This document shows positions 55,178-62,728 of a stretch of DNA of 64,000 bases, in pieces. The DNA is taken from NCBI GenBank assembly GCA_002103105.1, contig DAAY01000004.1, positions 27,746 through 91,745 on the forward strand, in the 5' to 3' direction. Every line of letters starts with the position of its first letter. Position 1 is the first letter of the stretch. The translations under genes were made by a program, and so were the position numbers. Source of the stretch: Candidatus Gastranaerophilales bacterium HUM_1. GTDB taxonomy: Bacteria; Cyanobacteriota; Vampirovibrionia; Gastranaerophilales; Gastranaerophilaceae. The notes under the pieces are model-generated. The model searched no databases. It saw only the letters and a program-made list of their open reading frames with translations, and was not told where the DNA came from.

Positions 55178-55725
55178 CCTCTCCTTGAGGAGATAGCTAT
55201 CTTTTCCTTCTCTCTTTGGGAAGAAAGAGTGGAATTTCATCATTGTTCATTCCTCCCCGAGGGGGAGGCTAGGAGAGGGGTTGAACAGAACAAGGAACAC
55301 ATTGAAGAATTAAATACTCAATGGACCACCTCACCCTTCCCTCTCCTCAAGGAGAGGGATATTTGTTCCTTCTCTCTTTGAAAGAAAGAGTGGAATTTCA
55401 TCATTGTTCATTCCTCTCCGTGGGAGAGAACTATTTATTCCTTCTCCCTTGGGAGAAGGTTAGGATGAGGGGTTATTAAACAGAACAAGGAACACATTGA
55501 AGAATCAAATACTCAATGGACCACCTCACCCTTCCCTCTCCTCAAGGAGAGGGCTATTTGTTTCTTCACCCGAGAAAAAGTATCAACCCAAAATACAAAT
55601 ACGTTATTCTGAGCAAAGCGAAAAACCCCAAGCCTAACGTGCTCAACAAAACCCTTCATTCAAACCGTCCGCCTTAGGATAATTATTTCCCCCTCTCCTT
55701 GAGGAGAGGGGTAGGGGTGAGGTGG
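55178..55725. repeat. mosaic hairpin-module array R1 (REP/BIME-like)
   Basis: Two units of about 160-195 bp, then a 205-bp segment bounded by inverted module-A copies (55521-55553 and 55691-55725). Modules are A (CCACCTCACCC..CCCTCTCC-TCAA-GGAGAGGG), B, C and D as defined in the findings. Confidence 0.85.
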
Positions 55726-55750
55726 AAGCTCTTACGCATTTTACACTAAC

Positions 55751-55795
55751 CTACTTATCCCAAAAAACTTCTTGCAACTGCAAATAAACACCCAT
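55751..55795 (-). pseudogene. 3'-terminal fragment of a DUF559 endonuclease gene
   Basis: The minus strand reads MGVYLQLQEVFWDK-TAG, compared with GVYLHLQEVFGDK-TAG at the end of the intact gene (57997-58341). The same 25-bp spacer and inverted module A lie downstream, and homology ends at about 55795. Confidence 0.6.
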
Positions 55796-56134
55796 CAAAA
55801 TCACCCAAAAGAATTAAATATATTAACAAAAATTAAGCAAAATAAAGAAAAACCAAAATTTATTTACAAATAGTTACAATCCCTTAAACACTCGTCACAC
55901 AATACATTCAGCCTTATCAAAACGAACAATCTAATCCAAAAGAATTAATTTTTTAAAATTAATGTTATCTCACTAGTAAATTTGGGTTTAATAAAATTGT
56001 AAAGCGATGAGGATTACTTACATTTTGAGAATTCGAGAAGTTATAAATACTGAATAGGATATTAAAAGTTTGGGATACAATTCAAAATACTGAAGAGTAT
56101 CCCGTTGCGGTTTTCAAATGTCGTTTGGGACATA

Positions 56135-56440
56135 AAAGCAACCCCTCTAAAAATCCAAGCAAACACGTCATTCTGAACAAAGCAAAGCATCTCAAGCTTA
56201 GGTCCAGAGGCCAACCCCTCTCCCTAGCCCTCTCCCCATCGGAGAGGGAACAAGAGGTAAAGCTAATCAAACCTCAATCTCTCACTGAACTCAGAAAAAC
56301 AATTCCTTCTCCTTGGGGACACCAGCTGAACCGACGAAACGAAGTGAGTCGAGTGAAACTGCGTACCGTATGGCTGAAGGTTAAGATGAGGGGATAACCC
56401 AAACACAACTCCTCTCCGAGGGAGAGGTTGGGAGAGGGGA
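56135..56440. repeat. mosaic hairpin-module array R2 (more diverged)
   Basis: Contains a diverged D unit (CACGTCATTCTGAACAAAGCAAAGCATCTCAAGCTTAGG), the 33-nt element at 56215-56248, GAAGGTTAAGATGAGGGG, and a B-like CTCCTCTCCGAGGGAGAGGTTGGGAGAGGGG at 56409-56439. Confidence 0.65.
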
Positions 56441-56602: not shown

Positions 56603-57379
56603 ATGACAAAAAGATTCGGTTTTACTTTGGCAGAAGTTTTGATCACATTAGGTATCATTGGTGTAGTTGCTGCCATGACTATCCCAACATTGATTGCTAA
56701 TACTAACTCAGCAAAATTTAGATCACAATTTAAGAAAACATTATCAACATTGAACCAAGCAGGTTTGATGGCTCAAGCACAATACGATTTTGACTATGCT
56801 GGTGCTGATACAGCTTGTAAAGAAGCAACAGGTGGTACTGAAAACCCAGAAGATATGATGTCATTCTGTTCATTATTGAACGGTACATTGACTGGTCACA
56901 CTTATGTTGGTAAACCATCAAAACTAAAAAGAGCTAACTCTGGAGCTACTAGTGCTGACAAAGCAACAACTTACTCTATCAACAAGGCTACGACTGGTTT
57001 CACATATACTTTAGCTGCTGGTTCTCATGATGAAATGATTGCTTACCAATTAGCAGATGGTTCAATCGTCGCATTCCCAGCAACAGCTACTGGTTGTACT
57101 CTTGAATTAGGTAAACAAGTTACAGCTAAAACATTAGGAGAGACTCCATTGAATGGATGTATTGGTTTCATCGACGTAAACGGTACAACATTACCTAACA
57201 AAGAAGTTACTTGTGGTACTGCTGCAACTTCTGGTATAGCATCAACAAAAGTTGAAACACCTTGTACTGTTAAAAACGATGCTAAACACATGACAGACGT
57301 ATTCCCAGTAGTATTCCACGATGCAACAGTAGAACCAGCATCAGATGCTGCTAAATATGTATTAACATCAGCTAAATAG
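56603..57379 (+). CDS. prepilin-type N-terminal cleavage/methylation domain protein, candidate major type IV pilin
   Basis: MTKRFG|FTLAEVLITLGIIGVVAAMTIPTLI (Gly -1, Phe +1, Glu +5). Cys pairs in the C-terminal half. Codon choice (GGT, GCT, ACT, GTT) and the strong promoter and terminator suggest high expression. Confidence 0.8.
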   Translation: MTKRFGFTLAEVLITLGIIGVVAAMTIPTLIANTNSAKFRSQFKKTLSTLNQAGLMAQAQYDFDYAGADTACKEATGGTENPEDMMSFCSLLNGTLTGHTYVGKPSKLKRANSGATSADKATTYSINKATTGFTYTLAAGSHDEMIAYQLADGSIVAFPATATGCTLELGKQVTAKTLGETPLNGCIGFIDVNGTTLPNKEVTCGTAATSGIASTKVETPCTVKNDAKHMTDVFPVVFHDATVEPASDAAKYVLTSAK

Positions 57380-57449: not shown

Positions 57450-57494
57450 GTAATTATGAGCTTTAATGTTTTTTTTAGAACTTGTTCAACATCA

Positions 57495-57971
57495 TTCCTC
57501 CCCTAGGGGGAGGCTAGGAGAGGGGTTGATTTTATAAATATACTCATCTCAAATTTTTATCATTCCAAACAAATCCAACTTGTTTTATATTTAATTTTAT
57601 TCTACTCATGACCTCTATTCAGAATAACCCTCTCCCTCCCCCTCTCCCTTGGAGAGGGGTTGAACAGAACAAGAAATATGTTGAAGAATTAAATACTCAA
57701 TGGTCCACCTCACCCTTCCCTCTCCTCAAGGAGAGGGATATTGCTTCTTCTCCCTTTGAAAGATGTCATTTCATCATTGTTCCTTCCTCTCCGAGGGAGA
57801 GGGGATATTTGTTTATTCACCTGAAAAAGAAGTATCAACCCAAAATGCAAATACGTTATTCTGAGCGAAGCAAAAAAAACCAAGCCTAACGTGCTCAACA
57901 AAACCCTCCATTCGAACCTTCAGCCTTGAGATTTTCCCTCTCCTTGAGGAGAGGGGGTAGGGGTGAGGTGG
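57495..57971. repeat. mosaic hairpin-module array R3, forming the 3' flank of the DUF559 gene
   Basis: Module B at 57495-57529, CCCCTCTCC-ctt-GGAGAGGGG near 57640, C-A at 57662-57737, an extra hairpin module of about 65 bp, a D unit at about 57819-57930, and inverted A at 57936-57971. Confidence 0.85.
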
Positions 57972-57996
57972 AATCTCTTACGCATTTTACATTAAC

Positions 57997-58341
57997 CTAC
58001 TTATCCCCAAACACTTCTTGCAAATGCAAATATACACCCTCAAAATTATTATCTATTTCATTATTCCAAAACCTTATAACCCTAAATCCTTTTGATTGTA
58101 AATATTTTGTTCTTTCATTATCTAATTCTATCTCTTCTGGTTCGTTATGCTGGCCTCCATCAATCTCTATGATTACTTTGTATTCTAGACACACAAAATC
58201 AACAATATAATCTCCAATATTATATTGCCTTTTAAATTTTAACCCTTGAAAGTTTCTATTTCTCAATAAAGACCAGAGTTTTAACTCTTGTTTTGTTTGG
58301 TTTTGGCGTAATTTTTGAATAAGGAACTTATATTTATTCAT
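57997..58341 (-). CDS. DUF559 endonuclease-domain protein (Vsr / PD-(D/E)xK-like fold)
   Basis: QELKLWSLLRNRNFQGLKFKRQYNIGDYIVDFVCLEYKVIIEIDGGQHNEPEEIELDNERTKYLQSKGFRVIRFWNNEI is the DUF559 pattern. Start set to ATG 58341 (the track start 58347 is a TTG). TAG stop at 57997-57999. Confidence 0.8.
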   Translation of the reverse strand: MNKYKFLIQKLRQNQTKQELKLWSLLRNRNFQGLKFKRQYNIGDYIVDFVCLEYKVIIEIDGGQHNEPEEIELDNERTKYLQSKGFRVIRFWNNEIDNNFEGVYLHLQEVFGDK

Positions 58342-58388
58342 AGCCAAATTTTAACATAAAGAAACTTAAATTCTTTGCGTTTAATTAT

Positions 58389-58765
58389 CCACCTCACCTA
58401 ACCTCTCCTCAAGGAGAGGGATATTGCGTATTCTCTCTTTGGAAAGTGCCATCTCTTCTTTGTACCTTATTCTCCTTTGGGAAAGAACTATTTATACCTT
58501 CTCCCGAGGGAGAAGGTTAGGATGAGGGGTTGAATAGAACAAGGAGTACGTTGAAGAATTAAATACCCAATGGTACACCTCACCCTTCCCTCTCCTCAAG
58601 GAGAGGGATATTGCGTATTCTCTCTTTGGAAAGTGTCATCTCTCCTTTGTACCTTGTTCTCCTTTTGGAAAGTGTCATCTCTCCTTTGTACCTTGTTCTC
58701 CTTTTGGAAAGAACTATTTATACCTTCTCCCGAGGGAGAGGTTAGGTGAGGGATATTTATTTCTT
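58389..58765. repeat. mosaic hairpin-module array R4, forming the 5' flank of the DUF559 gene
   Basis: Module A at 58389-58420 and 58576-58607, module C at 58532-58573, CTTCTCCCGAGGGAGAAGGTTAGGATGAGGGG at about 58498, and a 39-bp tandem duplication GGAAAGTGTCATCTCTCCTTTGTACCTTGTTCTCCTTTT at about 58628-58705. Confidence 0.85.
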
Positions 58766-61750: not shown

Positions 61751-62728
61751 ATGATAAAAATAAGAAGATTAACGTGTTTTGACCATCCAAAATTAAAAAA
61801 GCTTATTTCGTATCTCTGCACAGACGACAACGACAAATTGGCAAAATCATTAGCAGAAGAACCAATTGGATTTCTTAATGCAATGTTGCCGTTAAAACTT
61901 AAGTTTAAATCTGAATCATTTATTTTGATAGATAAACACGAAATTCTAGGGCTAATTACAACAGTTCGAACTCCAGGAAACCCATATAAAATAAATATTA
62001 CAAGACTCATTTTTAAAGACAATATGTACGAAATCGGGAAAGGTCTTGTTAAATATATTATGGAAAAATTTGGAGAAAAAGGAGCAACGTCTTTTACTGT
62101 AACAATTGATGAATGCCACGATGAATTATTTAATCTTTTTATAAATGGTTGTGGTTTTAGGCAATGTGCATCAGAAACATTGTGGAAAATAGAAAAACCA
62201 ACACCTCAAAAACCTCATCTACACTGGCGATATGCTCAAAATTCTGATTCAAAAGATATTGCACAAATGTATAATGATGAAGTTTTAAATATTTATAAAC
62301 CATCACTTATTAGACAGCCCCAAGAATTTCAAGCTCCAATTTTTGGAGGTTTTTGTGATTATTATAAAACAAGATATTTAATTGAAGAATGCGAAAAAAT
62401 TCTCGGATATTTTTCAATTACAACAAGCGATAATCTGAATTATATTCTAGATATTACAACCAACAGCGGTTACGACTTTGAATATTCCGAAATAATAAAT
62501 GTTATGCTATGTGAAATTGCGAGAAAAAAACGTGCTTTTTATCCACTAGTAAAACAAAAAAAATATATTAAAAATGCTGATAAATTAGGAGAATATTTAA
62601 AATCTCAAAATTATAACCCTATCCAAACACAACAAATTTTAGTCAAAGATTATTACAAGCCAGTGAAAGAAGAAGCTTCTGATTGGAAAGTTTTCATCCT
62701 AGGGGAAAACCAAATCACAACGAATTAG
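61751..62728 (+). CDS. hypothetical protein with an N-terminal GNAT-like segment
   Basis: ILGLITTVRTPGNPYKINITRLIFKDNMYEIGKGLVKYIMEKFGEKGATSFTVTIDECHDELFNLFINGCGFRQ loosely follows the acetyltransferase beta4-alpha3-beta5 pattern. Confidence 0.4.
   Translation: MIKIRRLTCFDHPKLKKLISYLCTDDNDKLAKSLAEEPIGFLNAMLPLKLKFKSESFILIDKHEILGLITTVRTPGNPYKINITRLIFKDNMYEIGKGLVKYIMEKFGEKGATSFTVTIDECHDELFNLFINGCGFRQCASETLWKIEKPTPQKPHLHWRYAQNSDSKDIAQMYNDEVLNIYKPSLIRQPQEFQAPIFGGFCDYYKTRYLIEECEKILGYFSITTSDNLNYILDITTNSGYDFEYSEIINVMLCEIARKKRAFYPLVKQKKYIKNADKLGEYLKSQNYNPIQTQQILVKDYYKPVKEEASDWKVFILGENQITTN

Follow-up and report, generated by a model that had tools for sequence, protein, structure and literature searches.

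The spacer between the gene big764 and a type IV pilin-like gene contains a dead, non-functional relic of a gene for a small DUF559 nuclease, an ordinary pseudogene in a repeat-driven hot spot. Both copies of the affected block have the same orientation and form direct repeats on either side of the pilin gene, and only the downstream one holds the intact DUF559 gene. We consider it probable that the downstream block was copied into the big764-pilin spacer, likely with the whole gene, which was then cut to 13 codons and decayed. The relic is a record of what becomes of DUF559 cassettes with a BoxC/TM repeat frame: at this one spot they are repeatedly copied, truncated and eroded. Positions refer to the window, i.e. 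the whole stretch of 64,000 nucleotides that was analysed.

Extent and content of the copied block

MAFFT and BLASTN alignments bear out the colinearity that a first-pass annotation had claimed for 55478-55795 and 57662-58041. Positions 55478-55801 are colinear with 57662-58046 at ~87% identity (E 1e-83); the match is 86.9% over 275 nt for 55530-55801 versus 57782-58046 (E 2.6e-88) and 86.7% for 55467-55571 versus 57654-57754. Reading and alignment also agree with the shared order given there (C-A composite, D unit, inverted hairpin module, 25-nt spacer, stop, 13 minus-strand codons), and everything quoted there, i.e. both peptides, the TAG and the pair of 25-nt spacers, was correct. The coordinates of these last elements were off by one: the spacer occupies 55726-55750, the stop 55751-55753 and the codons 55754-55792. 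The end of homology had been placed at about 55795; the gapless match stops at 55793, but after a 1-nt insertion TCAAAAT (55795-55801, equivalent to 58040-58046) still matches.

The copied block proved larger than 55478-55795, as 55247-55284 and 55269-55428 match the downstream array too. In a dot plot the full colinear block covers ~555 bp (55247-55801 versus 57492-58046), with two module rearrangements within this colinearity. A hairpin module of ~65 bp in the intact copy (57739-57805) had been described as extra and as absent from the fragment. Its counterpart is present upstream at 55361-55428, and the upstream array contains a second C-A unit in addition to this counterpart. The apparent loss of a single 65-bp module can be explained by where the alignment was started.

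Table 1. Features of the relic, its parental block and their surroundings, in window coordinates.
Feature	Position	Strand	Evidence
TM/BoxC-like module (hairpin + GGCTAGGAGAGGGG), left end of colinear block	55247..55284	+	97.4% to 57492-57529, first module past pilin terminator
First C-A composite + hairpin module	55269..55428	+	88.1% over 160 nt to 57648-57801, E 3e-55
Second C-A composite	55478..55553	+	86.7% to 57654-57754; read from sequence
C core of second C-A composite	55478-55520
TM module in second C-A composite, tail-first orientation	55521-55553
D unit with GTTATTCTGAGCAAAGCGAA motif	55575..55680	+	89% to 57827-57932
TM/BoxC-type module CCCCCTCTCC-TTGA-GGAGAGGGG-TA-GGGGTGAGGTGG, former 3' inverted repeat of cassette	55689..55725	+	matches 57936-57971
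25-nt spacer, former 3' untranslated stretch	55726..55750	-	23/25 bases identical to 57972-57996
Stop and last 13 codons of type-1 DUF559 (GVYLQLQEVFWDK*)	55751..55792	-	11/13 residues match intact gene
Junction: C, inserted A, TCAAAAT	55793..55801	.	TCAAAAT common to DUF559 frame (58040-58046) and native spacer
Native big764-pilin spacer, AT-rich	55802..56130	.	aligns to spacers of six other species in genus
Type IV pilin-like gene between the two direct copies	56603..57379	+	Pfam N_methyl; gene order as in nearest species
Parental block: post-terminator pilin array, D unit, TM repeat, spacer, 3' end of intact gene	57492..58046	+
Intact type-1 DUF559 gene, 116 aa	57997..58347	-	PF04480 E 3e-39; PDB 3hrl E 1e-22

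The fragment descends from a DUF559 (PF04480) gene. Spacer and tail together (~69-71 nt) match the end of the intact gene at 91%, a similarity that is significant against the whole genome (E 1.9e-22), and only these two places in the 1.88-Mb genome give a match for spacer plus tail. When translated, the fragment gives VILM-GVYLQLQEVFWDK* and the intact gene NNFE-GVYLHLQEVFGDK*. Coding capacity has been lost: the fragment is without a start codon, and its reading frame diverges beyond the 13 codons.

The product of the intact gene is Vsr-like, as judged by its Pfam and PDB 3hrl matches, and its nearest DUF559 relatives bear Gastranaerophilales or Melainabacteria names. Inverted TM modules at 57936-57971 and 58389-58420 bracket the gene; 55689-55725 and 57936-57971 both display the three blocks of a TM repeat when read against published TMECO, e.g. 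CCCTCTCCCTTGAGGGAGAGGGTTAGGGTGAGGGT. A promoter-like site is located at 58384-58412 on the minus strand, with the -35 hexamer TTGAGG inside the loop of the 5' TM hairpin, and cassettes of relatives have TGTTATAAT-like -10 boxes at equal distance.

The D unit matches only these two places in the genome at E<=1e-3. We considered it as a part of the cassette and rejected this, the cassettes of relatives being without a D unit. The unit and codons 9-16 of a second cassette type (T2, see below) both have GCAAAAAATC..CAAAACC.AAC, a likeness too weak for the D unit to be read as a degenerate DUF559 5' end. As the copy includes ~450 nt of non-cassette array along with a D unit found only at these two places, it is a segmental copy and not a fresh insertion; it also ends in repeats or short homologies and is absent from the outgroup.

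Two further repeats occur in the region. A second dispersed motif, GTCATTCTGAGCGAAGCGAA(gaatc), lies at 55601-55625, 56166-56190 and 57853-57877, has about 10 sites in this genome and often adjoins TM modules; its variants in relatives form a short hairpin, e.g. gtcattccgaac..ttcggaat. A unit of ~45 nt (ggaaagtgtcatctctcctttgtaccttgttctccttt) is in tandem repeat at 58612-58700, where an otherwise identical strain contig (L059) gives two overlapping alignment pieces at 58657-58672, consistent with one ~45-nt copy fewer.

Native spacer and strain polymorphism

The nearest species, G010, has the order big764, 353-nt spacer, pilin, 119-nt spacer and flavoprotein gene, with neither DUF559 nor arrays. 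Since G010 has neither copy and its spacers are short, the two 1.45-kb spacers on either side of the pilin gene were filled in later. To the right of the junction, the DNA aligns to the native spacers of G010 (81% identity over 55928-56020), G003 (70.7% over 55801-56071), G008, G017, G002 and G004, and the fragment abuts the start of this native spacer. The AT-rich DNA reported to follow the fragment is indeed there, and is AT-rich because it is native intergenic spacer. The right junction falls in TCAAAAT, a 7-nt patch of identity that the DUF559 reading frame has in common with the native spacer, and the homologous spacer of G003 has gTCAAAAc at the junction position. The patch would extend up to 12 nt if the preceding CACCC were also native; in AT-rich DNA, a 7-nt match is only modestly improbable by chance. 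The truncation point is identical in every strain with the relic. In G003 (L014) the big764-pilin spacer is 3 kb long and contains an extra copy of a 325-aa gene (61751-62728 in the window) amid several kinds of hairpin repeat.

The polymorphism of the locus was followed in 34 distinct contigs of the same species, the window included, from many human-gut samples. They were found by exact-protein look-ups, using for DUF559 the 114-aa form, as gene callers place the start two codons later than in the 116-aa open reading frame. For the pilin protein, 24 of the 192 blocks in which it is indexed were read. The full fragment (D unit, repeat, spacer and tail) is present in 11 contigs including the window. 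In 14 others only the tail is left, its left part being replaced by another module that begins in the last codon, and eight retain only CACCC ahead of the same junction. In the remaining contig (L070) relic, spacer, pilin and DUF559 are all absent through a deletion between the two 97%-identical modules. Tail codons at the identical junction are thus found in 25 of the 33 contigs that retain the native spacer, and the relic is partly or wholly lost in 22 of these 33.

The strains form a nested series in which the relic is eroded from the left. In a tree of the flanking 4.3 kb, rooted on G010, the three relic states are not sorted into clades, so that the direction of erosion is read from nestedness alone, and CACCC alone could instead be the ancestral state. 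Of the 13 contigs without an intact type-1 gene, nine still carry the relic. Decay is also visible within the tail, with an 8-nt deletion in L063 and L067 and an in-frame stop codon in L066. These strain data exclude both an assembly artefact and coding constraint.

Identity among strains is 95.5% for the upstream copies and 93% for the downstream copies, compared to 83-86% between upstream and downstream. The higher identity within each class points to a single old event that predates the sampled strain diversity. Towards the left of the D unit, the downstream copy resembles the upstream copies at 92% in this strain, versus 83% in other strains. This suggests a short patch of later gene conversion between relic and intact copy, although it could instead reflect change in the other strains.

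The first-pass annotation had called for a comparison with other strains, and this comparison establishes the arrangement as real, ten other metagenome contigs carrying the full fragment. A collapsed or misjoined repeat has next to no probability: the region is dense in short repeats, but the copies differ by 13-17%, and different assemblers recovered the arrangement independently from at least 10 other samples.

Origin of the relic

A second DUF559 cassette type, T2, occurs at the same locus and resembles the nonsense-mutated copy on contig C5. Depending on the strain, complete T2 cassettes with the same protein sequence lie on the upstream side of the pilin gene, on its downstream side or on both, and paired T2 copies have ~620 nt in common at 93-95%, including modules outside the repeats. 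Stumps are found as well. In L066 and L072 a T2 stump (repeat, promoter and first 16 codons) is joined to the D unit at a CAAAACC-AAC patch, and in L066 a T2 tail stump immediately follows the big764 stop codon. The complete copies on either side together with the stumps indicate that whole cassettes are copied between the spacers and cut down at short homologies. T2 shows the intact stage of the process that also gave the type-1 relic, and no other evidence informs the past of this relic as well. The C5 copy itself lies outside the window (C5:9302-9653, plus strand), framed by TM modules, and has TAG in place of a conserved Trp codon (KL*N); at the pilin locus, other strains have intact cassettes of this type.

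We propose that a block of the pilin-flavoprotein spacer was copied into the big764-pilin spacer in the same orientation. The block would have comprised the post-terminator array, the D unit, the 3' TM/BoxC inverted repeat, the 25-nt trailer and most likely the whole type-1 gene. The left end lies within repeat modules that the two spacers share, and this position points to an exchange by homology. The right end would be an illegitimate join in the 7-nt TCAAAAT patch between the DUF559 frame and the start of the native spacer; either the join itself or a later deletion at the join would have left only the last 13 codons. The relic has since drifted free of coding constraint, presumably being overwritten from the left by other modules and T2 in some strains, and possibly with exchange of a short patch between relic and intact copy. 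By analogy with T2 we infer that the upstream copy was once complete, and the events probably took place in the order given. A complete type-1 gene was seen upstream in no sampled strain. The earlier proposal of a duplication followed by truncation or recombination within 2.2 kb is supported by the nearest species, which has neither copy, by the segmental nature of the copy and by the strain series. The local repeat-driven dynamics that it took from this likewise find support in 34 contigs with 0 to 3 DUF559 cassettes per locus, in losses of the intact copy or the pilin gene, and in graded erosion.

In a rather unlikely alternative, the relic arose in one step by abortive templated repair, with no complete gene ever present upstream. 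After a break close to the end of big764, the broken DNA would have invaded the downstream array at a shared module, and synthesis would have proceeded through the D unit and repeat into the DUF559 3' end before the strand fell off and annealed to the second broken end at TCAAAAT. The microhomology at the junction is consistent with this, as is the finding of a longer relic in no strain. Furthermore, the native spacer seems to resume at its beginning, with ~60 nt (55802 to ~55860) before the conserved motif tttacaa compared to 59 nt in G010; that part of the spacer, however, ranges from 3 to 240 nt among species, which makes the argument weak. Against abortive repair stand the complete T2 copies on both sides of the pilin gene, i.e. 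whole cassettes do get copied. Alternatively, spacer, pilin, array and gene tail may have been duplicated in tandem, the first of the two pilin copies being lost afterwards.

It is very improbable that a second type-1 cassette inserted independently as a mobile unit, transposon-like or homing and bounded by its inverted TM repeats, and then suffered a deletion. Inward-facing TM modules do bracket DUF559 genes throughout the genus and in other phyla, and the presence or absence of the cassette is polymorphic. Nevertheless, the homology continues for ~450 nt beyond the repeat, through the D unit unique to two places; the type-1 gene was always at one locus (10 of the 10 places shown, among 23 contigs read); and a target-site duplication was seen at neither fragment end. 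Past mobility, which the first-pass annotation had entertained, gains weak support from the copying of cassettes between the two spacers with their neighbouring modules, set against the single locus of the type-1 gene in every contig read.

It is similarly hard to credit that the fragment is kept for a function, either as an antisense RNA acting in trans on the 3' end of DUF559 transcripts or, paired with the intact copy, as a direct repeat through which the pilin gene could be excised or amplified or its alleles exchanged. Two 555-bp direct repeats do bracket this gene, its alleles are 86-100% identical among strains compared to 97-99% for the flanking genes, and one strain (L070) has no pilin gene at the locus. 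However, this sole pilin deletion had other modules as end points, relic conservation is no better than that of the neighbouring neutral spacer DNA, and a promoter-like site pointing into the relic was looked for and not found. The loss of the relic from so many strains and its frame-breaking changes further argue against retention.

TM-framed DUF559 cassettes and known systems

The genome has ~45-80 TM-type hairpins, depending on the pattern used, and the largest cluster is the pilin locus. All three DUF559 genes of the genome have inward-facing modules on both sides, and nearly every free-standing DUF559 in the genus is bracketed in the same manner. In other phyla, the strict pattern gave a module on at least one side in 28 of 77 usable loci and on both sides in 9 of the 77; none of the control windows had a TM module on both sides under the strict pattern. 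Across the genus, genomes with more DUF559 genes tend to have more hairpins (rho 0.57, p 0.01, with genomes taken as independent and kinship ignored). Exceptions that are rich in hairpins with no free-standing DUF559 are G003, which has only a peptidase-embedded copy, and G029, which has no DUF559 match.

Such an embedded copy is also present on contig C6, outside the window (254235-253918, minus strand, i.e. C6:253918-254235), where DUF559 and two inverted hairpin flanks lie in frame inside an M14 peptidase gene; the fusion frame is open for 364 aa and matches Pfam DUF559 and Peptidase_M14. At least eight species of the genus have a DUF559 match embedded in a stop-free open frame of 364-394 aa, and the same peptidase context was found in G012 and G015, the two others whose flanks were read.

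Rfam gave no match above threshold on the region. The whalefall-1 family (RF01762) scores below threshold on TM hairpins (55327-55360, 57706-57739, 58576-58609 and others), at 18-25 bits versus a gathering cutoff of 37, and whalefall-1 and the TM hairpins may be the same repeat family.

Taken alone the fragment is a pseudogene stump, and its value is as dated evidence. At least two copying events have carried BoxC/TM-framed DUF559 cassettes across the pilin gene, an old one of type 1 and a recent one of type 2, and the copies are cut down at short homologies to stumps that persist past the loss of the parent gene. The locus hence offers a natural series of intermediates, in dozens of human-gut strains, for distinguishing a nuclease-driven from a purely recombinational mechanism; because the neighbouring pilin gene is variable, these dynamics may also influence how the cell surface varies. 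To our knowledge, no activity has been described for the DUF559 family, transposase activity included. We tentatively raise the possibility, which we do not favour, that the DUF559 nuclease cuts its own framing TM/BoxC hairpins and that the breaks drive copying of the cassette and neighbouring DNA into nearby TM sites. If so, the fragment would be a co-conversion tract begun in shared modules and ended inside the gene, and along with the T2 copies, the stumps and the repeat pairs that enclose no gene it would record the spread of BoxC/TM repeats and the instability of their surroundings. Since adjacent DNA is copied too, ordinary recombination may suffice.

Comparison to REP-RAYT systems (REPtrons) reveals a similar arrangement, with a small nuclease-type gene between inverted hairpin repeats and solo copies dispersed genome-wide; unlike RAYT, the gene here encodes a Vsr-like PD-(D/E)xK protein and not a Y1 HUH transposase. 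RAYT as a partner of the TM hairpins was rejected, as the RAYT of this genome has its own, different REP: the sole Y1_Tnp gene (C8:67692-68030) is flanked by the hairpin GTCGGCGTGGCAACGCCGAC, present in 12 copies. This classic RAYT-like Y1 transposase gene (C8:67514-68100 with its flanking GTCGGCGTGGCAACGCCGACCTAC hairpins, 12 copies genome-wide) lies outside the window; one GTCGGCGTGGCAACGCCGACCTAC copy is in frame inside the RAYT gene, and the system is separate from the TM modules. Nor does the fragment correspond to a complete transposon or IS, as it has one repeat only and homology runs past it.

Homing endonucleases pass through a cycle of invasion, fixation, decay and loss. The DUF559 genes are unlike them in that no recognition site, intron, intein or target duplication was identified here. 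They do resemble degenerating selfish nuclease genes, or IS and MITE relics, in that one species holds intact genes, a nonsense-mutated gene (C5), 5' and 3' stumps and gene-less repeat pairs, and in that the relic outlives its parent gene in nine strains. The fragment junction, in a 7-12 nt identity patch, is like the illegitimate-recombination junctions of bacteria, as is that of the second truncated cassette; compared to duplications and deletions formed in this way it has nothing distinctive and is an ordinary part of the story.

A further close parallel is with the BoxC, PIT and TM repeats, intrastrand-triplex motifs of E. coli and other bacteria (PMC4666352). When E. coli genomes were searched with the module by BLAST, only weak matches of 32-36 nt came up, and the comparison therefore draws on architecture and published sequences. 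About 3 kb of variable sequence surrounds TM loci, with no mechanism known (Holder et al. 2015, PMC4666352), and BoxC/TM repeats have been tied to strain-level instability, with no mobility-related genes found nearby (PMC4666352). Unlike those of E. coli, the modules here form arrays in a Melainabacterial genome of 32% G+C and frame DUF559 genes, the likeness being one of sequence architecture alone. Like BoxC/TM repeats, they have a pyrimidine block, its purine complement and a G-rich third block (CCCTCTCC-TTGA-GGAGAGGG-GGTA-GGGGTGAGG), and they are intergenic, often in inverted pairs, and set in surroundings that are unusually variable between strains.
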